The notes under the pieces were generated by a model that worked only from the letters and a program-made list of their open reading frames with translations, did not search any database and was not told the DNA's origin. DNA of 63,531 bases, filler included, from Conidiobolus incongruus B7586 (taxonomy: Eukaryota): assembly GCA_000697335.1 (NCBI GenBank). It is 9 parts of 9 records of this genome, joined end to end, with 100 filler letters (N's around TTAATTAATTAA, not from the genome) between each part and the next. Parts side by side here need not be neighbours in the genome. Positions count along the whole stretch, not along the records: positions 59,336 to 61,056 come from JNEM01006399.1; 8 more parts are not named here. One strand, written 5' to 3'. Shown here piece after piece: positions 1 through 63,531 of the stretch. Position 1 is the first letter of the stretch; each line of letters opens with the position of its first letter. The position numbers were made by a program, and so were the translations under genes.

Positions 1-2022
1 TAAATGTATATTAATTAAATATAATAATATTTTAATTATTCAAAACTTAATAAAATATAAAATTTTTAATAAAATATTTGATTATTTTATAAATCAATTA
101 TTACAAGTTAATGAAAATCAAGTAAAATAAAAAATTTGTGTTAATTGGTAATTGAAAAATAAAAATAATAATTGATCAATTTTTTTTAAATTCTAGGGTT
201 TATATTTATATTATAAAATAATAAATTCAATATTATTAATTGGGAAAAAATCGTCAGATGTAAAAAATAATAAATACTCGAAAATCAAATATTTATTTCA
301 ATATAGATAATATAATTTTACAATATATATATTCTTTTTTAAAAAATTAATATAATTATATAATAAATAAAATTCTATAAAAAAATATAATTGATAAATT
401 TGAAAATAATTTGATATTTGTTTTGTTTTTGAAATATTTGATAATTAATAGTTATAAAAATTATGCATTTCTTAATTAAGAAAAATTAACTTACTGCAAT
501 TATTTTAATCATGTGTAATGGGAAATGGTATTTGACTTTGTTTACTGTTACTAAATTAGTTAATTTTATTAATATAAACGTGTTTAAAATTTTATTATAA
601 TGGATTACCAATATTCAATGCAGGTGATTGTAAAATTCAATTCCAATTGAATATTTATCCTCTTATAATGAATATTAGGGTACTCAAATTGGAATTTATA
701 ATTTCGAACCAATAGGATGAATTATAAGTAAACAATATTTTTATATTTTTAATATAATCTCTATTACAACTCCTTTTTTGGCTCCTTTGATTAGCTTAAA
801 AATTCATTAGCAATTTTTCTTTTTATTTATTTGTAAAAATCAATCAATCCTAACCCAAAACCGCTAATAATTGCTTGAATTATGCTAATGCAATTCCATT
901 CAGATTATAGTCAAATGGAGTTATTAATGTTGAAGTTAGATTTTTTAGATAATTACAGATAAATTTCTACTACTTCAAACAGTAATTGGATATCTTAATA
1001 TATCCAATCAATCAAAAAAATCTAGATTTTCTGATATATTTTATTATAATAGTGAATTATATTCTTCTTATCAGACCAATAAGAACAGGACTGATCAATT
1101 ATCAGAAATCGTAATCAATTACTCCAACTTTCCTTTGTTAAAAATAAATTATAGCTTACTAAAATTTATGGTGAAATTATTGAGGAGATCAAGAAGCTCC
1201 GAAATCTAAAATAAATTAGGAATTTACAATGTAAGAATTTACTACTATAGAAATCCATCATTCATATTTGAACCCCTCAAATTATTCAAAAAAGATCCTT
1301 TAGAGTTAATTTATAGTTACAAAAAACATAATTAATACCAATAAAACAAATGCGGAGTTTGGTTTATTACACAATATATTAATCTATCCAAATTTATAAA
1401 AAGAATAAAAATCAAAATATTATGCTTTATCTTGACTATTGTGTCCTATTTAACACTTAAAACAAGTTGAGATATTTTTAAAATCATAATATTTTTATAA
1501 AAATAGAAACATATTTATATATCAAATTATTTTAAATTTTGGATAAATAAAAATTTAATTAAATAATATATACATTAATTTTTTTTCTCTAATAATTTAT
1601 TATATCAATTTTTTTTCTTTTTTAAGATTAGTTTAAAATAATTTTTAATTAATTTTTATGCATATTTGATAATTTTTTTAAAAACTATTTGAAATTAATT
1701 TCAATCGATCATATCTTGATTGATTATAATTAAAAATAAAAATATTATTTTAGAATGAAAGTTTAACTTATGGTTAGAATTGCGACAATCAATACATTGG
1801 AGTGTGAAGTACTTTGGTTATTGGCCCTAATATATCCTTAAGTTATAAATATTTAACTTTTTTATTTTAAGTATAATTATGATTAACAAATAAATATACA
1901 TCCTTATTATTTTAATTTATATTTTTATATTGATTTTAATATACTCTAATGGAAAAAAATTTGAATTATTTAAAATGAATGTTTAAAAATATAATTAATC
2001 TTGGTGAATTTCTATTACTAAA

Positions 2023-2754
2023 TTGGTATCAAATTCAAAATGTAGTACTAGCTTGGGAATTAGAACAGGATGTGGTTCTAATACTGATTTCCGTCCTAGC
2101 ACTCCATTTGAGAAAGCTCGTCCAGGAATGGCACAATATAAAACACTTTGTGAATTTGCTAATACCTCCCAAACTTCAAATAAATTATCAAAATTTAAAC
2201 TTGGAGATGTTGCAAAAATATACTCAATGCCATGGAGAAGCTATTAGTTTAACTCTTCAACAGAGTAGCATCTATAGTTAAGTTAGTCAAAAGATCTCTA
2301 CATGCACGGATAAGATTTCTCATTCAGTTTCCATTTGTATTAAATGTTGTAAATCATCGGACTTTAATTGTATCCATAGCTGTGTTAGTATATTACAGAA
2401 TGCTACTCAGAACTGTATTGCTGACTTGGCTAACGTGAGCAGACCCGAAATCCATAATATTATCTTGCGCGCAAACAGGTCCCTTATATCTAAAGTTGTA
2501 CAGGCTCTCTTTGACTGTAATTACATATATAGTCAAAAGGTTATAATGGAATGGGAATCAATTCGAAATCTTCCTCCAATTCTAGAATTTTTGGAAGCTC
2601 TGGTGACTCTTGTAGTTCTGGTAAAGCTGGATCTTCAAGCACTTCTGTATCATCAGAATCCAATAGTGGTTCTAGGGATTCATCTGGCATCGCTGCAATT
2701 TCCAGTTTCGGCATCATTGATTATATTTTGCTTAACTATTGTTTCAAATTATGA
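2023..2754 (+). pseudogene. Frameshifted pseudogene of the Cys-rich GPI-type surface protein family (paralog of 3519 and 5764 genes)
   Basis: Pieces in different frames align to the neighbours: PGMAQYKTLCEF, CHGEAISLTLQQSSIYS*, NATQNCIADLANVSR, QALFDCNY, YNGMGINSKSSS and a Ser-rich tail. It has an in-frame stop at 2279-2281, several frameshifts and no intact signal peptide. Confidence 0.85.
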
Positions 2755-3019
2755 TTTAAAGTAAAAGGCTTAATTTATTATATAATAATGATTTATTAAT
2801 AATTATAATTTTTAAATAATATTGTGATCAATATACACATAGACAAGCATACATGATCTCTTTACCAACTTTTTAAAATAGATAATAACTAATTAGTCAT
2901 AATAATTTCATATTCAAATTTTAAGTTTATTTTTATAATAATATAATCAAGTTTCATAATTGACTATTAGATTAATTATAAAATTTGAAAAAAAAGATTT
3001 AATAATAATAAATCTTTTC

Positions 3020-3063
3020 ATTATTATTATTATTATTATTATTGTTATTGTTATTGTTATTAT
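3020..3063. repeat. (TTA)n/(TTGTTA)n microsatellite
   Basis: Directly visible simple repeat. Confidence 0.8.
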
Positions 3064-3518
3064 CAAATTATACAATAAATAACTAAAATCTAATCAAATA
3101 ATTTTTTAATATAATTACTAAAAATGTTAAAAATAAAATTTGATAACTTAAAATTGCATAATTTACATAAGTTTATTGAACTAAAATTTGTAAATAAAAT
3201 CAAATTTAATATTTTAGTAGCTAAATATTAGATTAAATGGTTTAACAATTAGTGGTTATCATCTGGTGTATTATGATTGGATCATATGGATCAATTCTAT
3301 CCTATTTGAGGAATCGGATAATCTCACTGTTGCAAAAAACTGAGGGAATATTGTCATGTTAATTGGAAGATTTGATTAATTCGTGTTCTCACCTTTAATT
3401 TGTTGTTATGTATTGAAATTAAATGGTGGATCTAAATTCATCTAAAATTTCAATTTAAATAGCCTGACAATCGTTCATTGGCTAAGTACTCCAAATTCTA
3501 ATTTAAACTTTTGACAAT

Positions 3519-4307
3519 ATGAAATCTGTATTCTTAACTCTTACTTCTATCACTGCTGTTCTTGCTTCAACTATCAAGTCTGGTTCTGGTTCTACTTCTG
3601 GCTCTGGTTCTCATTCAGATCATAATACTGGATCTACTACTGGATCTACTACTGGATCTGGTATCAGTGGTGGTTCTACAGGTGGTGCTGGAGGTGCTGG
3701 AAGCGCGGAGTGTGCCTCGATGTTCCCAGGCAATAGTTTATATCAAGCCTTTTGTGAAATTGGAAACAATCCAGATGTTCAAGCCAAAGCTGCTAAATGT
3801 GAAATGTCTGATCCCAAATACATCGAGTGTTATGCTAACGCTGTTGGTTTAACTCAACAACAAGCCTCTATTTACGGCCAAGTTGGACAGAAAATCACCC
3901 CATGTACTTCCAAGAGCGCTTCTGCTTCTGTAGAATGCACTAAAGATTGTAAACCTACTGATTCCGGCTGTTTCCAAGATTGTGTTAAAAAAACCACCGC
4001 TTCAGTTCAGAGTTGTATTGCCGATTTAGCTAAAGTCAGTTCTTCAGATATGGAAAAAGCCCAATCCTGTGCCACTAAATGCCCTACCAAAGATATTTCA
4101 GCTTTCTTTGACTGTAATTTCAGTTGTAATGAGAAGATTTACAATGGTTTGGGAATCAACGCCAAGTCTTCCTCATCCTCTGGATCTTCCGGTTCATCCT
4201 CTGGATCCAGCGGCGGTTCCTCTGGTTCCAATGCTATTGCTAATGCTTCTCCATTAGGCTTGTCAATTTTTATGACTGGTTTGGCCGTTGTTTCTAGCTT
4301 TATTTAA
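3519..4307 (+). CDS. Secreted Ser/Gly-rich, Cys-rich probable GPI-anchored cell-surface protein (262 aa)
   Basis: Signal peptide MKSVFLTLTSITAVLA, S/G/T linker, 14-Cys core with four CxxxC motifs, Ser-rich stalk, small-residue omega region (SNA/NAS) and hydrophobic C-terminus LGLSIFMTGLAVVSSFI. Single exon with an AATAAA downstream. Confidence 0.9.
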   Translation: MKSVFLTLTSITAVLASTIKSGSGSTSGSGSHSDHNTGSTTGSTTGSGISGGSTGGAGGAGSAECASMFPGNSLYQAFCEIGNNPDVQAKAAKCEMSDPKYIECYANAVGLTQQQASIYGQVGQKITPCTSKSASASVECTKDCKPTDSGCFQDCVKKTTASVQSCIADLAKVSSSDMEKAQSCATKCPTKDISAFFDCNFSCNEKIYNGLGINAKSSSSSGSSGSSSGSSGGSSGSNAIANASPLGLSIFMTGLAVVSSFI

Positions 4308-5763
4308 TTTTCATTATAGTCACTTGTCATAATAATGTTCATTTTTGAATTAATTAATAAAAAATAGAAAAAGCAAATATTTTGAATACATTTTTACTAA
4401 TGTTGCACTTCTAAGTTAAGGCTAGGTCTGGATTAGATAGTTAAGGTAATGCTATTTGTTAGATATATCATTCACTAAATCAATTATCTAATTAATTTAC
4501 TATCAACCATCTTATTATAAATCACAACACCTATCAATATCTTTATTTGAATTTTAATAAAAAAATAACAAATGATGAATATAATGCTTAATTTGAATAT
4601 TGATTATAAACTTTTTACAAAATTATCATTTTATTTTATTAATTTAACAATCTATAATTAAATAAAAATTGCTTCGGATAATTAAATGGTTTTAGATGAT
4701 GTTACCCCTGCATAAAACATGTTGAAAATTGCTTTATTAACAATCGAGCATTTCAAATGAAAACAGTATTTAACATTAATGGAGTATGCATAAATTTTTT
4801 GGGTTAATATAGTGTTATTAAAGCATATTTATTTTATATAATATATATTCTTTGATATTCAATATTTGTTATATAATTTTACTCAATTTGAACTTAATAT
4901 TTATATAATCAATCCAATTTCCTGATGAATAATTAATTAGATAAGATAGGTTTCAAAATATTATTCAGCATTAATGATTTCAAACAAACAAAAAAATATG
5001 CGATATATTACAGATCTAATCTGTAAAATGAATTTATTTGTTTATGCATTATTTTTTAATAATCACTAAAGAAGATTTTTTTTAATACTTAATCTATCTA
5101 ATACTTATTTCACTCTGAACTTTATTTACTATAAATTAATCTCAATATTTATTAAATACCGATATAATTATTGTTAATGAAATTATATTAATTTTAATAT
5201 ATAAATTTATTTTAATATTCTAATATCTCTTACCAATTAAAGTTATCCAATTTTTGTATATCTATGATTTTAAAATTTTTTATCATATTCCGTATTATAT
5301 AAATAGAAAAATTATATTAAAATTACTAAAATTAACTATATTAACTTTTGTTAAATAATATTTATGGTATTTGAAATTTACACCTATCAACATTCAATTA
5401 ATCAAATAAAACCAAGTTTATAAACAATTTTTGATCTAAAATGTTTAAATAATATGCATGTGATTTGCAACTTAACACTTTAGTCAAAATTCAATGAATG
5501 TAATTCTTTTCGCTGACATTATTATATAAAGTATCTAATTTTATGTTTCGGAAAATCATTCATGCACCAGCTATTATGCCCCTAGAAGAATTATATAAAA
5601 TTAAATTGAATAAAGTACTTATTCATTTTGTGATATTTATTTAGTATTATTTGTCTATTCCACTTAATATATATATATATATACTCTTTAAATAATAGTA
5701 TTTAAACAGATATTTAAACTTGGATTTTTGAAATATTATCTATTTTACATATCTTCAATCAAA

Positions 5764-6555
5764 ATGAAATTTTCATTATTATCTCTCATCTCTATCTCGA
5801 CCATCTTCGCTTCAACAACTAGATCTGGATCCAGTTCAACCACTGGGCACGGTTCTGGTGGTAGTAGCTCTGGCAGTAGCTCTAGTGCTTGTCCAAGTAG
5901 CGGTCTCCGTTCGGGTTCTGATTGTGATTTTACTTGCCCGGGTATGCCGCTCTGTTATGCACTTTGTGAAATCGGAGATGGTCATCAAGTTCCGTCCAAA
6001 GCTTCGAAATGTAAACCTGATTTTGAGGATATGACTAAATATGCTCAATGCTATGGTGAAGCAATCGGACTAGATTCACAACAGGTCAACGTCTACAGTC
6101 AACTCGCACAGAAGATGAAAATATGTAAAGATAAATCATCGGATTCTAGTAATCAATGCTTTAATTCTTGTAAATCTGGTGATAACTGCTGTACTCAAGA
6201 GTGTGTTAAGAAATCAAAAGATGCTACTCAAAACTGTATTGCCGGTCTGGCTAAAGTGAGCAGATCAGACCTCGATAGCGTCAATTCTTGTGCTAATAGT
6301 TGCCCAATCTCGAAAGATGCTCAGGCATTATTCGAATGTAATTATAAATGCAGTGAAAAGATTTATAATGGGATGGGAATTGATCCCAATTCTTCTATAT
6401 CTTCAAGCTCATCAGACAGCTCGAAAAGCTCTGGTACCTCTGGATCTCCTTCAGGGTCCAAGAACGGCTCTGGAGGTTCATCTGGTGTAATGACCACACC
6501 CTTAAATATTATGATGGTAATCACAGGTATAGCCATTCTTTCTGGCTTAATATAG
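5764..6555 (+). CDS. Paralogous secreted Cys-rich probable GPI-anchored cell-surface protein (263 aa from the ATG at 5764)
   Basis: Signal peptide MKFSLLSLISISTIFA. Shares LCEIG, CYGEAIGL, CIAGLAKVS and FECNYKCSEKIYNGMGI with the 3519 gene. Has a Ser-rich stalk and hydrophobic tail. Confidence 0.9.
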   Translation: MKFSLLSLISISTIFASTTRSGSSSTTGHGSGGSSSGSSSSACPSSGLRSGSDCDFTCPGMPLCYALCEIGDGHQVPSKASKCKPDFEDMTKYAQCYGEAIGLDSQQVNVYSQLAQKMKICKDKSSDSSNQCFNSCKSGDNCCTQECVKKSKDATQNCIAGLAKVSRSDLDSVNSCANSCPISKDAQALFECNYKCSEKIYNGMGIDPNSSISSSSSDSSKSSGTSGSPSGSKNGSGGSSGVMTTPLNIMMVITGIAILSGLI

Positions 6556-17100: not shown

Positions 17101-19806
17101 GGCGAAGAATTGAAGTATCAGTTTTATAATTTATTAGAAAAATATTGTTTTTGAAAATGATATCAAACCTTTGTCAACCATTGGCCTCTATATACACCAT
17201 TTAATTACAAAATTCAGCTCATAATTTGGAAAAAGTGGAATATTTTAAATTTCACAAAAAACATATAAAACAAGATTAGCTTTTTCTTTATCAGAAAATG
17301 GATTATCTGTTCCAAATTTTGATGAAAAATTTCCAACCCAACAAACCAATATATGGTGTATATTTGAGTTGATATAGCTCAAAAATTAAACAAGTATTAA
17401 AATATCAAATTACCAGCTAATATTAATTTTCAGCAAATGAAATCACCACTAATTAAATTCAAAAATTGATCAGGTTATCCATTTATTTTAAAACCAGTTT
17501 ATCCTTAAAAAAAGTAACAAATCACATAATTCAGAGAATGAAAAATACTCGAAAATAGTCTTTACGTAATAATATTTGATTGAATATTACGTTGAATTAT
17601 ATATTTTCCTAATATTAATTTAAGTAAATTATTTTTTTTAATTTTAAATATGAAATATAATGCGTAATTATCGTGATATAGTTTGATTAAAAAATATATT
17701 ACCTTTAATTACAACGTCCAAGTATAAATTTTGATAAAAATTTATCAAAATCTATTAATAAATTTTTCGATATATTTAATTAAACCATATTGTAAAAGAT
17801 TATTGAATTATTATAAATTTATTTTATATAAATTTTATCATATTTTATATTTTGGCAAACTAATCATCAATTCACAAAATCGTATTACATTAACCTTAAA
17901 AATAACGGAGCTATGAAGAATTTATTCAAAACAGGAATAGTTTAATATTTCAACAATTATTGATATTGTTTTTTCAGTGGATAATAATAGATATACAGTT
18001 TTCAATATTTCGAGTAATTTTGATATTAAATCCAGAACAAAAGGTTAATAGAATCAACAAGAATAATAGCATCTAGGATAAATTATGGATAAAATCAAAA
18101 TTTAGAATAATTTTCACTCAAGTTATCTTTTTGAATTTGTGTTTATAAAGCTATTGATTTCACGCATATCAATGATCTAATATGTTTATTAAAATCCTAT
18201 ATGGTGTTTTTAAAGTAGACTAATTTTTTTAATTAAGGATTTTCTGATCTATATATATAAAGATATTAATTAATTTGCTTGACCCAGTTGATTACTATCA
18301 AATATTTTAATAATCATTTTTTATATATGATAAAATATATTATTAAATATATTGTGGAATGTTTTATTCATGAATTGATTCTTACTCACTAAGAGATCAA
18401 AACTCAATTTAATATTCATTCTATTAACCATATACTGATAATTGATAGCCTAATAGTTGCTCTAAATATTATAACCTATACACTTACATTTATTTAATTA
18501 CTCTGTATAGATTTTTGTAAAATATTTATTTTTCTATTCACAATGAACAGAAGAGAAATTAAATTATAAATATAAGTTAAATTTTATTCCCTTTATTTTT
18601 TATACTTAAAATAAATATCAAGTATTGATTTTCTGGTAAAACCAACAGCAATTATAGATTTAATTTAATCATAACTATATATATTTTAATAACCGAATTT
18701 TATTAAATCGAATATAGTTTCTATTGTATCTTAATCTTTTGATATATTATTCATAAATCTTTTGCTATAAAATAAAATAAATAAGGTTTTTGTTTATATG
18801 TAATATTTCAACAAGTAAAAGTCACTATCCAAATAAAAAATATTTTAAAAGGATAATTTTTCAATATTAATTATAAATATATCAATCATGATTAATGATT
18901 TGATAGTTTATTAAAATAACATTTTATATATTATAATATTTTATTTAAAAAATTACCAAAGTTAAAATATTTAAAAGGATATTACTTAATTTTTTCAAAC
19001 TTAAATAAAAAGGACTAATCAAAATATATAATTATTAAATGATATTTGCTTTGATTATTTGTTAAAATTAATATTTAATAATTAATTGGTAAATAATATT
19101 AAATTATGATTTTGGGAAATAATTTCTTTAATCCTGTATTAAAATATAATTTAAATTTTTATATATATCAAAATTGTTTTTATTATAACTTTATTATATA
19201 GATTTTTACTCTTATAATAATAAATGTTATAAATACTCTATATAAATAAATAACTTCAAATTAAGTTACTTGGTTAATTTATTAATTTTTTAAATAAATA
19301 TAAATAAATAAGTAATAATAAGATAACTCAAATATAAGCCTATAAAATATTGATAGATATTAATTTTATTGAAAATTAATTTTTAAAATTTTGATATATT
19401 TTTATATGATTTATTTATTTTTAAATTAATTAGAAAATTTATTTTTTTAAAACCAAAATTAAATTTGATAAATAATAATAAATTATCTATTAAATTAAAG
19501 CCTTATTTCATTATTTAATTTTTTATATTTTTTTAATTTTTTTATTATTACTAAAACNNNNNNNNNNNNNNNNNNNNNNNNNNNNNNNNNNNNNNNNNNN
19601 NTTAATTAATTAANNNNNNNNNNNNNNNNNNNNNNNNNNNNNNNNNNNNNNNNNNNNTTATACTTTATATATTATTTCTTAATAAAATGATAAAACTATA
19701 AAATTATAAAGTTATAAAAATAATAATAGAATAATTCTTAAATATTAAATTACAAATATAATTCAGTAATTTTTGATATTAAACTTTACTTAAAATTCAC
19801 CTATTA

Positions 19807-21373
19807 CACTAACCTGCAAAAGTGAGTCATAAAATCCAAAATATATATATTTCAATTATTAATTAAAACAATTGTATATATTAGATTACTTGAAACTATA
19901 ATATATAATTAAGGTATATTATTTAATAATAAATATATTTAGATATATTTAGTAAACTATTAGCAAAAATATTAACCCTTAATATTTAACTAAGGTGAGT
20001 TATAAATTTGCAGGTTTTTGAGATAAGGGGATATATTTAACAATATATTACCATATCTTTTTTCTCTCTTTGCCATTATTTTATATAATATTTTACAAAT
20101 ATACTAAATTTTTTTTATTAGTATCATTATACCTAAATCCCTCTCTAAAAAATCTACTTGTACATTAATTAACTTTATAAAAAAGATAAATCAACTTGTG
20201 ATATTGTTAGAATTACTAGTGTTAGCTAGTCTACTATAGCTATAGTTGTTAAGAATAACAATAAAGAAACATTTAAACTTAAACTTAAGCATGTTAAGAT
20301 TATAAATGAATATGATGAGAAGTATATCTATAGGTTGGTTAATACAAGCAAGTGTAGTATTATTGTAGAAATACAATAGGAACTGTAAAACTATACAGGA
20401 ATATTAATTAGCATTGATACTATTATATGTGTTTTACATTAGCATAGATACCACTTACACTTTAAGAAAAAACACCCCCAACTAAAAAAATCCTATTGTA
20501 AAGCTAGGCAGGAGTTTAAATGTTGCTACTAATATTAAACCAAAACTAATTAAAGTAAGGTTATTTAGTCTAATAAAACAAAAATATACTTTAGTGGATC
20601 TGATAAAAAAGCTAGATGCTTTAGAAAAGATGCAAAACTACTTTGTGACCATTATGTTAATTTTACCCAAAAGTATAATAGTGGGTTAATTATTGTTTAG
20701 GGATGTATATTGTCTTTAGGTATAAGGTATTTTTATAAAGTTAATAGGGGAATTAATACTAAAATATACTAAAGTATTCTAAAAAGTGCATTGAAAAAAA
20801 CCATTGAATAGTATAGGTTAAACAAATCTGATGTTATTTTCTAGTAAGATAATACCCCTTGCTATATTATAGCTTCTACTACCAAATAGCTTAAAAATAA
20901 CAAGATAATAGTTATAAAGTAGCCTCTTTAATTTCCTAACCTTAATCTAATTAAACACCTTTGGGATCAGTTAAAAAAAGCTATTAAAGCTTTCCCCCTA
21001 GCAAAAAATTTAAATTAACTTTAGGAATATATTCAAGAAGCATAGAATAAGATTAACCTTTCTTAGTGTAAGAAGTTAGTTGATTCTATACCACACAAAC
21101 TTAAAGAAGTTAGAAAAGCTAAAGGTAGATATATTAGGTTTTAATTTTTTTTATCACCAAAAACCCACAAATTTATAACTCACCTTAGGTAAAATTTAAG
21201 GGTTTATATTTTAGCCAATTAATAGCTAAATATTATCATTTAATGATATATATAACTATTAAATATAATAGATTTTAATTATTTAATTTAGGCTTATTTT
21301 ATTAAATATTAATCAAGTTATTAGTAAAAATATAAGTGTTTTTGATTTTATGACTTACTTTTGTGGGTTAGTG
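19807..21373 (+). mobile_element. Full-length Tc1-family (DD34E) DNA transposon with ~230-bp TIRs, inactivated
   Basis: TA|CACTAACCTGCAAAAGTGAGTCATAAAATC ... GATTTTATGACTTACTTTTGTGGGTTAGTG|TA, with a TA target-site duplication. The inner TIR ends match (19990-20025 vs 21150-21190). Confidence 0.95.
20129..21144 (+). pseudogene. Tc1 transposase pseudogene
   Basis: One frame 20161-21144: VI*SNKTK (VIWSDETK), IV*GC (MVWGC), F**DNTPC (FQQDNAPC), *PL*FPNLNLIKHLW (WPPQSPDLNPIEHLW), SIPHKLKEVRKAKG. D-34-E spacing. The start is probably ATG mutated to ATA at 20129, with one early frameshift. Confidence 0.95.
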
Positions 21374-22329
21374 TATTTATTATTCAATAGTATCAAATTT
21401 TTAAGAAAAAATAAAAAAAATATTCTATAGTAAAAATAATAAACTTAATTTACCATTATAGAGATTATATATCTTTTTAATATAATAAATGAATTAATAT
21501 ATATTATAGTATATTTATAATGATATTTTAATTTCTATAATTTTTAATAATAAAGCCTTATTTATAAACTTATATAATATTAATTATATATTACTTAAAT
21601 TATAGACATAGTAATTAATAAAGTTTATATAATATAAAGAATTTAATTTAAAATAATATGATTTCAAATATTATATTAATAATATAGAAAAATAATAGAA
21701 ATATAATAAAAGATAATTAAGCTTTATAAATCTAATATTGAATATTAATATATAAAATTTTTTATTAGNNNNNNNNNNNNNNNNNNNNNNNNNNNNNNNN
21801 NNNNNNNNNNNNTTAATTAATTAANNNNNNNNNNNNNNNNNNNNNNNNNNNNNNNNNNNNNNNNNNNNTAAATTTTTAAAATTAACAAATTATTTTAAAA
21901 AATTATATTAAAAATTTACCATTTTTTCTTTTTAAACTAATATTTGATTATATTTATAAAAAACTTGATCATAACAAGCAACAACATTTATATGATAAAA
22001 AAATAGAAAAGTAAATATGATCATCATGGTTCAAGAATTAATATAAAGATTATATAATTAAAATTTGGAAGTTTAATAATATTCAAAATTAATCAATGTT
22101 ATAAACAAAACAATATGTTGTATTTTGTCGAATTTTATGATGAATTTTTTAACTATAAATTGAATTACATATTATTAGTCTTGTTGAATAAAAATCGATA
22201 ATTAGAAATAAAATAATGATGATATTATATCTTTGCTGTATTCATTAAATATATTGGTTTGATGTTGTGAATATAGGTTAAATTTAAAAAGAAAAAGTCA
22301 AAATATAGAATTTAGTGTGATATTGATTT

Positions 22330-58012: not shown

Positions 58013-58349
58013 TATTAACTGGGCTTGGAAAAGCCGTGTTCAAAGTAGTTTAAACAAAAGTGAGAGATCTGGAGAATTCCAGGTAAGTGTTAGGGAGATA
58101 GGAGGCTTATTGGTTTAAGTCAAATAGCTGGGAGGACCCAGATCGAACTCCAATCGTTGAGGATAGCTCTAATTCCGAGTTTTATATAGAGTGAGTTGGG
58201 TAAGGTGATTCATGAGATTCTCTTATGACTTGCATCATGGGCCAATTAAAAGATAGAGCGGGAGCAGATGGTATGCTAGGAGGAAATGACTTTAATATAA
58301 GGTTGATGTAAGAGTACTTGTGTAGAAGAGAGTTACCTGGCTTGTGACA
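58013..58349 (-). mobile_element. Solo LTR, copy 2, abutting a (TA)n run
   Basis: Collinear with 16347-16677 (caggtaagtgttagggagata, ctgggaggacccagatcgaactc, ttttatatagagtgagttgg, gtgaca). Confidence 0.8.
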
Positions 58350-59345
58350 ATATATATATATATATATATACCACAAACAATAAAAAGTAATGATGATTAA
58401 AACATTGATTGAGAATATTAAAATTTTACTCATTCTAATTATATATCAAATGCATTATCCAACAACATCTTTGTTCCAAAATAGCGTATTAATAAGCTTT
58501 AGAATCAATATGATTATCTAATATTATAAGCTTTGATTTAATCTTTCATATCTTGTAATCAATTTAAATCAAATTTATATTTATGTGCTTCAGTTGAAAA
58601 ATTAAATGAATTTGTTTAATTGGAAATTTAATGATTATAAATTTTCAATAATAGTCCCATGCTAAGTTATTGTATTCAAATTGAAAATAAGTTAACTATA
58701 AATAGCTCATTATATTTAGGCTATTAATATCATTGTATTTTCAAAATTAATTTTGAAATTTTAATTTACCACTTTATGTAAAACAATTTTGAATTATTTT
58801 ATTATATGCATAAACTTCACATTACATATCGTGGTATTGAGATTATAATCTTTAATAATCATACATTCAATATTAAAAGATTGCATCTCAATGAAGTCAA
58901 ATAAAACTGAAAATGACCAATTTGGGTAGTAATTTTATATTATTTTTTATTTTTACAAAAAACTAAGTCAATTTGAAAGATATAGGTATAAATAATTCTG
59001 ATACTCTTATCAGTTAGATGACCTTTTTTAAATTATTATATTATTTTAAGTCTTATAATATTAATATTGTAATTTAATTTTAATAGATTTAAACTATTTT
59101 ATTAATATAATTTATTTATTATATAATATATTAGTTTGGATTTGAAATATTAAATTTTTTTAAATTAAAAATAAATAAACATTATAATATATAATATATA
59201 AAAATAAATATATAATATAAAATCAATATTCTTTTNNNNNNNNNNNNNNNNNNNNNNNNNNNNNNNNNNNNNNNNNNNNTTAATTAATTAANNNNNNNNN
59301 NNNNNNNNNNNNNNNNNNNNNNNNNNNNNNNNNNNTTTTTTTTAG

Positions 59346-60881
59346 ATTTAAATATTGATACATTAAGAATAATTTATTATAGTCATAAATCACCTAGTTT
59401 ATTAACAACTATTGATAATTTAACCATTAATCATCTTTTATCTCATTTAAATACATAGGATATAAGTGTTCTTTATAATTATACTGATATCCTATTAATA
59501 TTCCATACTTTAAAAGATATGAATCCATTATTAGGAATAATAGGTAAAGGTTTTGGTTGGACATCATTTAAATTAAATAATAAACCAATCAAGGTATAAA
59601 AATATAATATAATATAATATAATATAATATAATATAATATAATATAATATAATATAATATAATATAATATTAATTTAACTATAAATTATAAAATAGATTT
59701 ATCTAAAGTTAACCCATGTATTAAAAGCTATATCCTCTTAAAGAAGCTGGAAAGTACCAACAACTAGTAAAGGGTTACATTTAAGAAAGTTATCTTTAAC
59801 CAAATTATTTAATTGGTTAAAAGAATTAAATACTAAAGATATTGAAGATAGTTTTAGAAGAGTTAGATTAGAAATTAGAGTTGCAAGTTAAACTTTAACT
59901 GATGCAAAAACCTATATTCAAAATAATAATATATTAAAATTAAATAATATTCCAAATATTCAAATTTTAAAGGTAAATATTATGTTTATTTTATTATAAT
60001 ATCTTAATTTAATTTTCTTTAGATTACAAAAATTGACTTTTTAAATCATTTACAATATTTTTGGAATGCTGCATATAATCAACAATTTTGGATTATTAAA
60101 AATTCATCTAAACTCTCTGTTAAGCATTGTCAAATTTTAATTGATTTATTTAATAATTTTGGATGGAATCCAGGTAATTAGGGAAGGATTAAACCAACTT
60201 TAACAGAAGATAAAGCTTGGTGGTTAAACAAATATATTAATAACAATGATAAAATTATTAATATTAATATTGATAATTCAAATGAAATTTTAATTCAACA
60301 ATTTGATGAATTTAGAGTTAAAGGTTTATTATCATGTCCTAAAGAGTCTTGCAAAGGAAATAAGTTTTGGAAACAATCTAGACCAAATAAGAAACTTAGA
60401 GTTAGATGTACCTTATGTCTTAAAAGTTTTGAATCAGATTTTATTGAAGAATGGTTTGAAGATATTATAAACAGTTTGTTATTTTTATTATTTTTTTTAT
60501 TATTATATTTTAATATTAATAATTAATTATTTATATTTAGATCATGTTATTATTAATAATCCTTTAAAAAATATTAATGATTTACCTTTTAATCATTTTA
60601 TTCAAAATCCTCAAGATGTAGTTAATTCAATCCCTTTGATTCCTACTTCAAATGAATCAAGTGATGTTATTATTCAAGATGAATCTATTGAAGATAAAAT
60701 TACTAAAATGGTTGATTGGTTTAAACCTAAATAAAGAATCAAAGTTAATCATAGGAATTGGCAATGGAGAAAAATCAATGGGACTTTAAGTGGTAGATAT
60801 TTAACTCAAAGTTTAGCAATTAAAGTGATATTAAAAATTCATGGAGAGAATTGGGAAACTGAAATTAAACTAATTAAATAA
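59346..60881 (+). pseudogene. Intron-containing putative Rep_trans-like endonuclease plus C4 zinc ribbon gene, five premature stops, 5' end lost in the gap
   Basis: Exons 59346-59593, 59697-59972, 60023-60473 and 60541-60881 splice in frame via GT-AG introns. Motifs IDTLRI, NT*DISV, KIYLK, RVRLEIRV and CPKESC-x17-CTLC. The gene structure is well supported, while the family call is by motif order only. Confidence 0.65.
59601..59670. repeat. (AATAT)n pentanucleotide microsatellite inside an intron
   Basis: About 14 perfect units within intron 59594-59696. Confidence 0.95.
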
Positions 60882-61156
60882 TTTTATTAATATATATAAA
60901 GTAATAATTTTTTAAATTAATTTTGTTATAAAATTCATTTATTTATATTTTAAATTTTTTTATAGTGGATATATTAATATTTTATTGATTTTTATGTTAT
61001 TAATTCATTTATTTATTATTGTTATCATAATAACATCTTTTAATAAGAACACTTGTNNNNNNNNNNNNNNNNNNNNNNNNNNNNNNNNNNNNNNNNNNNN
61101 TTAATTAATTAANNNNNNNNNNNNNNNNNNNNNNNNNNNNNNNNNNNNNNNNNNNN

Positions 61157-61515
61157 ATTTTTTTTAATCTTAAATAATTTTTCCTAGTAATAAATTATTG
61201 ATTTAGATAATATTTAATTATTAAACACTATTTATAAACTTTAAATAGTTTTAAAAAGTTTATAATTAAGCTTTATTAATATTAAAAGAATTTTTAATTA
61301 TCATTATTTAATTTAAATATAACTATATTAAATAGCATTTTATAAAAAATTAATTTTTTAATCAAAAAAATTATTAAATATATATATATTTTTCAAAACT
61401 CTTCATTTACTTATTTGTTTTATATAATTTTTTTTATTTGAAATTGATACTCTATTTGGAAAAAAACAGAAATTAAAAAATTTCCTAGTTTTTCAATTCT
61501 ATAATAATAATAAAT
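61157..61515 (-). mobile_element. Mariner 5' end fragment, cut by a gap
   Basis: Direct repeat of 62530-62885 (aataaattatt.atttagataata, tttttttatttgaaatt, agaaattaaaaaatttcc). Confidence 0.8.
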
Positions 61516-61562
61516 GTTTTAAAATATTATAAAATTTCAATATAATAATCCTTTAATATTGA

Positions 61563-62882
61563 TAATACTTTGTAATCTAATTAATTAGAATTTTTTGTGA
61601 TTGAAAAAAAATAAATATTTTAATATTTATAAAGTAAAAATAAATATATAATATAAAATTAATAAATTTTTTTATTTCTAATAACCTTTTGCTATATTTT
61701 TGGCAAAGATCTAATACTTAAAAAACAATTCTTTTTATTAAAGACTGAAATTTGATATTTCACAAACTAATTAAATTTTTTTGCAAAAATTTTCTTTCTT
61801 GTAAATTGGTTTTTTAATTGCCTAAAGCAATTATAATCATATAGGTTATAATCTAGGGAATATACTGGATATGGTAATTATTTCCAATTATTTTTAATTA
61901 ATTTAGTATTTTATAACTTTAGATTTATATATTTTGTAATTATCATGTAAAATAATTAGTCTTCTCAAATTATATTGAGAATACCAATTAGAAATAATTA
62001 TATTTAAAAAAGAAATATATAGTTTATTATTAATTGATTTTCCTTTAGAAATTAAATAAAAATACCATATGCCATTATAATCTATTGCAATAATTAACAT
62101 TTGCTTATCAATATAGTGTTTATTTAAAAATATTTGTGAAGGGGGTTGATTTAGCTTAATTCAACACTTTGATTTGTATTTTAACAAAGGATTATACAAA
62201 AGAATCTAAAACTCATCAATTGCAATAATTTACTGTAAAAGCCTTGGTTTTTAGTTATACCTTAGTAAGTTTTGTTTAGCAATAACTACTCTAGCTTTTT
62301 TAAGCTTTAGTTAAATTATAAGGTACCTATTTTATATTTTTATTAATTAATTTTATTTTAAACTTTAATATATATAAAATACTTATGTAACTAATATTAA
62401 AGTGTCCTGATAATTCTCTAGCTGAAATAAAAAGATATTTTTCAATATAATTTTTCATTTTATTAATAATTAAAAAAATAAGAGTTGAAATTAGTTTTTT
62501 AGATTTTGATAGGTTTTGGGTAATTTCTTTTCTAGCTTTAAAGTAATTTACCCAGCAATAAATTATTAATTTAGATAATACTTCATTACCAAAAGCTGCT
62601 TGTAAATTTTAAATGATTTTAGAGGGTTTGTGGTTAAGTTTTATTAATACTAAATAAAAGACTATTGATGGTTATTATTTAGATTAAGTATGATTAAATT
62701 AAATAACTAATTTTAAAAAATAAATTTTTTGATCAATAAAATTATTATATATATATATATATATAATTCAAAACTATTTATTTTCCTATTTATTTTGTAT
62801 ATATTTTTTTATTTGAAATTAATAATATTTTTGAAAAATTAGAAATTAAAAAATTTCCCATATTTTTGATTCCAAGATAATA
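61563..62882 (-). mobile_element. Near full-length (~1.3 kb) mariner DD34D transposon, inactivated
   Basis: AAFGNEVLSKLIIYCWVNYFKA, SARELSGHF, K*VPYNLT, IIAIDEF*ILLYNP, KQMLIIAIDYNGI, GKSINNKLY, IILHDN and PYPVYSLDYNLYDYNCFRQLK. Degenerate ~30-bp TIRs at both ends. Confidence 0.9.
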
Positions 62883-62963
62883 TTAATATTATTCAGATAT
62901 AGCTAAAAACATAAATTAAAAAATAAAGTTAAAATTATAAGTATTATATTTAATAAGATTATT

Positions 62964-63362
62964 TGTAAGCGTAGTGGTAGTTAAACTAATATAGTGCAGA
63001 GGAAGACTTAATATAAAAGTAGTGTGGCGTAGAACATGGTAATATAACGTGGCTGTAGCGTGCAAGTGTAAACAAAGTTTAATTAAGCTTCGAACTAGGA
63101 TGAGTCACCGATATATTAAGATTTATATTAGGTAGTGCCAATATCCTACAATATTGACAGAATATAGTCTCAATCTTAGAAATAGTGTAAAAGTAAAAAT
63201 AGTAAGAATTGAGAGGAAAAAAGAGGAATTTAGTTTATTAGATAATTCAATGCTATTTATACAATTAATTTAGCTATAAAAGTATAAATTAATCATATAA
63301 TTTATAGTTAATTAAATTATATAAAAATATATATAAGAATTTAGAGAACTAGTCTCTTAACA
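62964..63362 (-). mobile_element. 3' LTR (399 bp) of a Ty3/Gypsy chromovirus
   Basis: The minus strand reads TGTTAAG...CTTACA, immediately preceded by the polypurine tract AGGGGAG (63363-63369). Confidence 0.88.
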
Positions 63363-63531
63363 CTCCCCTAGTAGGTCTCTTAGAGGAGACACACTCCCTA
63401 ATTTTTTGCAAATAGGTATGATAGGCTGAGGTATTCTTAATATTTTCTAGAGGTTCCCATGTAGCTTCTTCAATAGGATAACCCATCCATTTTACATAGA
63501 AGTAAGGCTTGTTCCTAATAGATTTGGATCT
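63349..63531 (-). mobile_element. Chromovirus pol C-terminus (chromodomain), runs off the window
   Basis: RSKSIRNKPYFYVKWMGYPIEEATWEPLENIKN matches the chromodomain YxVKWxGY..TWEP consensus. Confidence 0.92.

Follow-up and report, generated by a model that had tools for sequence, protein, structure and literature searches.

The Rep_trans enzymes (PF02486; MOB_T), represented by RepC of pT181, RepD of pC221 (RepDE, 4CWC) and RepSTK1 (4CIJ), carry an acidic strand, a second acidic strand, a K/R-x-Y-x-K/R strand and an R-x-E strand, followed by a helix. Their TBP-like fold is a curved sheet of 10 strands in which the active-site residues cluster, and they nick hairpin origins in a metal-dependent manner, with formation of a 5'-phosphotyrosine adduct. 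They were once thought to be confined to bacteria and have been extended to archaea (PMC13107129, 2026), where the Rep-Arvir (DUF7845) initiators provide a Rep_trans-fold nickase beyond sequence detection, with an altered tyrosine motif, a dispensable second aspartate and a fused DNA-binding domain. The intron-containing, multicopy Replitrons and Helitrons of eukaryotes employ tyrosine nickases of the HUH type (GYxxK in Replitrons) and have defined termini and target duplications (PMC10288648). Here we describe a spliced gene of Conidiobolus incongruus B7586 (GCA_000697335.1), which lies on a 1721-base contig (JNEM01006399.1) at positions 59336-61056 of a joined stretch of 63,531 nucleotides, called the window. 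The gene belongs to a fungal repeat with many copies, of which it is a mutated one that no longer codes, and we put at roughly 0.55 the probability that it is the remnant of a dead mobile element whose enzyme was a tyrosine nickase like those of Rep_trans.

The contig reads as four in-phase exons of 21 to 24% GC, split by three GT-AG introns of 3 to 10% GC, and phase is preserved at all three splice junctions. Exon 1 opens mid-codon at 59346, directly behind an AG; therefore, at least one further upstream exon lies beyond the contig and the 5' part of the gene is missing. The reading continues, with no frameshift required, to a natural stop at 60879-60881 and is interrupted by five premature stops (TAG 59456, TAA 59739, TAA 59889, TAG 60179 and TAA 60732), whereas the other two plus-strand frames hold 6 to 34 stops per exon. 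Along the gene, the motifs IDTLRI, NT*DISV, K|IYLK and RVRLEIRV follow one another in that order. An earlier note on this DNA had proposed a gene spliced over at least four exons with these four motifs in sequence, five TAA/TAG stops and no frameshift, all of which was borne out, exons 1 to 3 being backed in addition by an intact homologue, P0005; the end that the note gave (59972) had to be moved to the natural stop. The features of the contig are as follows.

59346..59593, plus strand: exon 1 of those present, with the IDTLRI strand, the NT*DISV strand and GxGFGW; matches P0005 residues 1-87 (pairwise E 2e-7).
59357-59359 (Asp), 59456 (stop) and 59459-59461 (Asp), plus strand: key codons of exon 1.
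59594..59696, plus strand: intron 1, GT-AG, 103 nt, 3% GC, with a TAATA microsatellite.
59697..59972, plus strand: exon 2, interrupted by stops at 59739 and 59889, with K|IYLK, the RxE strand and the conserved HVLK / SW..P / GLH.R block; homologous to P0005 residues 97-191 (E 6e-5 library-wide, 2e-14 pairwise).
59700-59702 (putative catalytic Tyr) and 59871-59873 (Glu of RxE), plus strand: key codons of exon 2.
59973..60022, plus strand: intron 2, GT-AG, 50 nt, 10% GC.
60023..60473, plus strand: exon 3, a helical region with G[FW]NPG..PT..AWW; stop at 60179; matches P0005 residues 203-349 (E 1e-16).
60335-60418, plus strand: four-Cys putative zinc ribbon in exon 3, with a weak MJ0042-type zinc-finger match (E 0.052, below cut-off).
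60474..60540, plus strand: intron 3, GT-AG with donor GTTTGT, 67 nt, 4.5% GC, phase 1 on both sides.
60541..60881, plus strand: exon 4, comprising a linker of low complexity and a C-terminal segment that is basic and contains Trp; interrupted at 60732 by a premature stop, with the natural stop at 60879-60881; no homologue and no family match in protein family scans.
60882..61056, plus strand: AT-rich 3' region, also multicopy, with loose contig ends at 61053.

When exon 2 was searched with phmmer against 1.84 billion representative proteins, the sole protein returned was P0005 (361 amino acids, E 6e-5), a singleton "hypothetical protein" encoded by an uninterrupted 361-codon reading frame on a 7428-base JGI metagenome contig. 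P0005 is colinear with exons 1, 2 and 3 at the pairwise E values given above, and since it matches, in order, exons 1 and 3, which were absent from the query, the splice model of exons 1 to 3 is confirmed. The blocks common to the gene and P0005 are [VI][ND]TLR, NT[W*]D, GxG[YF]GW and K-I-Y-x-[RK]-L-x-H-V-L-K, together with SW..P...GLHxR, R[ML]E[VI]RV, G[FW]NPG..PT..AWW and four cysteines; both Y-x-R/K and R-x-E are retained in P0005. The stop at 59456, which precedes the second Asp, aligns with a Trp (NT*DISV versus NTWDVG), and the possibility that this stop conceals the Arg of an RxD strand was rejected because P0005 has Trp there. As for the suggestion that IYLK arose from IYPK by mutation, P0005 reads IYPR, in its favor, but no variant was seen at this codon among the 40 of 70 variant places listed.

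Searches for further relatives were negative throughout. Word-based protein searches confirmed none of 2159 candidates for exon 3 and none of 174 for exon 2, and with alignment A2 only P0005 was recovered among 5521 candidates, the P0005 searches covering lengths up to 632 amino acids. No relative was confirmed by locus scans of viral and metagenome contigs. Degenerate DNA patterns selected viral loci (5 and 12) and 21 loci of prokaryotes, and in none of them did tblastn similarity extend past the pattern itself (best E 0.061); the phage scan gave one chance match (E 0.4), the plasmid scan gave none, and PDB sequences matched exon 2 at E values no better than 0.09. A single match in 351 genomes of one bacterial phylum (E 0.006) was rejected as a solute-binding protein. 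In Atlas, a comparison by language-model neighbours, the unnamed clusters closest to whole P0005 (0.87-0.88) are hypothetical proteins of 377-418 amino acids, mostly from Bacteroidota where the source is known, which could be a bridging family.

Copies were judged from the assembled contigs of three DNA runs of one sample, of which 371, 252 and 339 aligned to the stretch; contig depth in these runs does not equal copy number. Identities of the 371 contigs in run X2 were 99% or more in 76, 95 to 99% in 144, 90 to 95% in 108 and under 90% in 43, with 151 of the 371 below 95% and many at 80 to 95%. Allelic variation was rejected as the source of the variants because there are too many contigs and identity falls to less than 90%. 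The places of change listed, all of them transitions, numbered 63, 37 and 47 in the three runs; among the 40 of 70 variant places for which effects were listed, 3 changes were synonymous, 27 changed a residue and 10 involved stops. None of these 40 lay in a CpC context, variants occurring at CpA, CpT and CpG. Most of the depth has a sense codon in place of the stop at 60732, as do some copies at 60179; at 59889 a sense codon was seen in just one short contig, from a soil run (X5, which gave three short contigs in all). The allele that predominates in the other copies at 59465 and at 59859 encodes the Gly of P0005. Internal-deletion derivatives are suggested by contig joints with 280, 936 and 57 bases skipped. 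In several contigs the match starts at about 60894-60918 and the DNA ahead of it is unrelated, and in each run two contigs diverge at 61053 into a different flank; the former could be copies truncated at the 5' side and the latter a 3' end, or both could reflect chance similarity of AT-rich sequence.

The absence of CpG that the earlier note had remarked on was upheld, with 0 observed in the 1721 bases against 15.4 expected, compared to an observed/expected ratio of 0.69-0.96 in three ordinary genes of the window. Just one other contig of the window lacks CpG, a decayed Tc1 contig (19658-21768). Three repeat contigs (59336-61056, 19658-21768 and 61157-63531) are about twofold enriched in CC/GG, with CG absent or nearly so. 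The CC/GG enrichment and the variant contexts together suggest a repeat-directed cytosine mutation process wider than CpG decay. A further argument of the note, that the contig sits between two gaps as the true transposons do, fails because all nine contigs are separated by the same 100-base spacer (N44, a 12-base stop-codon linker, N44; eight gaps); what is shared with the Tc1 contig is only short length and the lack of CpG. Since the spacers are artificial joints, contig order carries no synteny information.

Several observations point to a Rep_trans-like enzyme. Among named Atlas clusters, 22 of 30 matches to residues 1-195 of P0005 belonged to Rep_trans, Phage_CRI or Rol_Rep_N sets (0.92-0.93), in which the family share within clusters was 10-29%; the remaining 8, including the top match at 0.94, had no family in common. 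A block test drew on 27 Rep_trans and 14 Phage_CRI proteins, with BLOSUM smoothing of the blocks. In this test the P0005 residues Y98 and E165 ranked 1 of about 194 positions for both families, the first Asp and the Glu of the window gene also ranked 1, and the ordered score was equalled by 3 of 500 shuffles. A four-motif pattern, drawn up post hoc, was found in 25 of 41 Reps, in none of 360 background open reading frames and in 6 to 16 of 5000 shuffles. The Tyr stands in R/K-x-Y-x-K (K|IYLK here, KIYPR in P0005), with a strand predicted at 93-97 in a low-confidence model, and the R-x-E strand is kept (RLE in the gene, RME in P0005, the Glu ranking 1 in both). The predicted order of strands and helices, again in a low-confidence model, fits the C-terminal half of the RepSTK1 sheet as its topology is given in PMC4797284, and RepSTK1 was among 30 weak structural matches. 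Judged by motif and without a significant alignment, counterparts of D142, Y191, K193, R212 and E214 of RepD are present, and R189 is replaced by Lys and A144 by Gly/Ser (PMC4797284).

A considerable set of results weighs against this reading. Pfam gave no match for the exons (E<=1) or for P0005 (E<=10), and NCBIfam and PHROGs gave no match to Rep_trans or Phage_CRI. In hhalign, the core scored a probability of 0.1-0.4% against our own Rep profiles, not above that of shuffles, and the reversed core scored higher (24.7% versus Rep_trans), while the controls behaved soundly (Rep_trans versus Phage_CRI, 96.9%; single CRI proteins, 71-73% in 3 of 4). The positive block test was a second try with narrower blocks than the position-specific scoring matrix (PSSM) of the first, stricter test, which was null, with 168 and 37 of 300 shuffles as good and Y98 not ranked first; even in the second test the best ordered path took D60 rather than D36, which ranks 14th to 18th, the second Asp of the window exon ranking 2nd or 3rd. 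For full-length P0005 the best Rep_trans cluster in Atlas ranked 23 (0.80), and one third of shuffled proteins also give ten concordant family matches there, rates that do not refer to protein parts. In the R-x-D-x-A-x-D strand the Asp is kept, Thr replaces Arg and the last Asp is missing; in terms of the residues given as strictly conserved in RepD, equivalents of R140 and D146 are absent from both the gene and P0005, and E196 aligns with His (PMC4797284). The first metal ligand (D46 in RepD) is Asp in the gene (IDT) and Asn in P0005 (VNT), and it lies 34 residues from the second acid rather than the 96-107 of Reps, a shortness that had been conceded at the outset. Only one homologue was found. 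Finally, no termini, target duplication or empty site was seen in the contig, which is cut at both ends; repeat finding and folding of this contig gave no terminal repeats and no hairpin, and no hairpin in the 3' region exceeded chance (z = 0.0).

Structure comparison did not settle the matter: Foldseek searches of PDB and BFVD with two low-confidence models returned no match at E<=0.001, a further look through the Foldseek chains gave one unrelated row, and with the full-length model the 50 rows listed were unrelated, RepSTK1 not being among them. With models this poor, these negatives do not exclude the fold. The profile comparison that had been envisaged as a check on the fold went against it, with hhalign below 0.5%. 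Of the proposal of a Rep_trans-fold nickase, the Atlas features, Y-x-K/R, R-x-E and the weak RepSTK1 match stand in support, but Pfam, hhalign and the strict PSSM test were blank and the RxD strand is degenerate. Since no profile match and no R-x-D strand were found, the gene is not placed in PF02486. Moreover, because even a true member of the fold may show a changed Tyr motif and be able to dispense with the second Asp (PMC13107129), these departures lower the case for family membership more than the case that the protein works like such an enzyme. We consider it rather probable that the protein has a Rep_trans fold.

The gene resembles Rep_trans itself in the order of strands, in the spacing from the second Asp to the Tyr (46-62 here, 49-63 in Reps) and in the Atlas features of the P0005 core. 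In contrast to Rep_trans, there is no Arg two residues before the second Asp and no D+4, the first acid is Asp or Asn at the short distance noted above, about 35-45 additional residues separate Tyr from Glu, the C-terminal part carries a cluster of four Cys, the gene has spliceosomal introns and its host is a eukaryote, and there is no detectable profile similarity. Phage_CRI proteins (PF05144, M13 gpII-like) share an IDT-like first strand, ranked first in both block tests, together with YxK and G-x-x-R-x-E, the Gly of which is found in P0005 and predominates among the other copies; their Tyr-to-Glu inserts reach about 50 residues in the set compared. Unlike in Phage_CRI, RxD is absent here, there is no profile match and the setting is not a phage. 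Rep-Arvir, likened by description and not by sequence, is a precedent for a divergent Rep_trans-fold nickase with a fused DNA-binding domain, although those proteins are described from archaeal viruses and plasmids and carry a winged helix-turn-helix, where a Cys cluster stands here (PMC13107129). With the Replitrons and Helitrons the gene shares a eukaryotic host, introns, multiple copies and a tyrosine nickase, here putative; it differs from them in giving no HUH or Helitron match.

The single spliced gene likely encoded a Rep_trans (TBP-like) tyrosine nickase joined to a DNA-binding part that contains a zinc ribbon. The evidence shows the structure of the gene, its diverged copies, their decay through C-to-T change and the intact homologue; the course of catalysis and transposition we infer as follows. 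Acidic residues of the IDT, xxD and RxE strands would hold the metal. One end of the element would be nicked by the Tyr, which would remain joined to the 5' phosphate. Replication by the host, with a helicase of the host, would then displace the strand, which would enter a new site through a second round of nicking and joining, a copy-and-paste model borrowed from IS91, Helitrons and Replitrons with their HUH enzymes. As for the short acid spacing, strands 2-5 of the RepSTK1 sheet would be missing or have been encoded in the lost upstream exon; none of the catalytic residues listed in PMC4797284 lies on these strands. Copies would have been inactivated by the host through cytosine deamination. 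That such elements form a group of eukaryotic DNA transposons using a Rep_trans/TBP-fold tyrosine nickase, with a trimmed sheet and a zinc ribbon, in place of DDE, HUH or tyrosine recombinase enzymes, has in our view an even chance.

The mobile-element part of the reading is the firmer one. Copy number and death, as the earlier note had it, follow from the aligned contigs and the mutation spectrum; since no ends or empty sites were seen, mobile-element status is what we infer, and we hold a mobile-element origin to be highly probable. Fungal repeat-directed C-to-T mutation hits any duplicated DNA, so a host gene family that was duplicated, then inactivated in this way and never self-mobile would decay likewise, and no termini have been demonstrated that would speak for an element. 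Against such a family stand the hundreds of contig variants, with stops involved in 10 of the 40 listed, the lack of any close intact fungal orthologue in the exon 2 search, and a mutation signature equal to that of the Tc1 contig, and we regard it as highly improbable.

If the gene did belong to a multicopy mobile element, its product may have had some other fold, either as an unrelated, unnamed nuclease or as an accessory protein or cargo in a larger element, the true transposase of which lay outside the 1.7-kb contig. This is possible but doubtful, because the only families that named Atlas clusters give for the core are Rep_trans related, the Tyr and Glu strands rank first for both Rep_trans and Phage_CRI, and no DDE, HUH or tyrosine-recombinase family was matched. 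A tyrosine recombinase was rejected, since GLHxR differs from HxxR, the motif of those enzymes, and Pfam gave no match; a DDE transposase was rejected for want of any match; and family scans of the four exons and P0005, to which the missing upstream exon did not belong, found no HUH or helicase family. Instead of a transposase, the gene might have encoded a Rep_trans-like replication initiator, brought in by a replicon resembling a virus or plasmid that integrated, acquired introns and multiplied. Known Rep_trans proteins are indeed replication initiators or relaxases (PMC4797284 and PMC13107129), and P0005 is an uninterrupted frame on a metagenome contig, but the three spliceosomal introns, together with numerous copies that look dispersed and show deletions and decay, speak for a long stay in the nucleus, and the viral, phage, plasmid and prokaryote scans yielded no relative; we consider this origin very unlikely. 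A dead mobile element with a Rep_trans-like nickase remains the reading that we prefer.

If the fold is correct, one so far reported only from bacteria and archaea reaches eukaryotes, a further chemistry of eukaryotic transposition has been overlooked by repeat classifiers, and a prokaryotic replication initiator was recruited as a transposase, in parallel to the HUH route. No eukaryotic Rep_trans transposon was found in the literature searched, most subscription papers and transposable-element databases such as Repbase lying outside that search. Even if the fold fails, the gene represents an unclassified, multicopy, spliced gene family that is invisible to open reading frame tracks and to Pfam.

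Other repeats occur in the window. The contig at 19658-21768 holds a decayed Tc1/mariner transposase on the plus strand (about 20260-21138; HTH_Tnp_Tc3_2, E 1e-5, and DDE_3, E 1e-4, both below cut-off); sequences that resemble each other lie close to its two ends and may represent long terminal inverted repeats. On the minus strand, a chromo domain at the window end (63352-63531, E 4e-10) is probably the end of a Ty3/Gypsy integrase, and a mariner-like helix-turn-helix fragment was recognized by eye at 62327-62608, where Pfam gave no match. The start of that contig (61157-61500) resembles 62580-62900, as if an element end had been duplicated. A GC-richer island of 330 bases at 58016-58350, which ends in TGTGACA and adjoins an AT microsatellite, looks like a solo long terminal repeat. 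On the plus strand at 1979-6555 lie three tandem paralogues (3507-4307, 5692-6555 and a broken copy at about 1979-2764), which are Cys-rich and Ser/Gly-rich, have a signal-like start and a hydrophobic tail, and are possibly GPI-anchored surface proteins. Zn_clus and Fungal_trans matches mark the host as a fungus.
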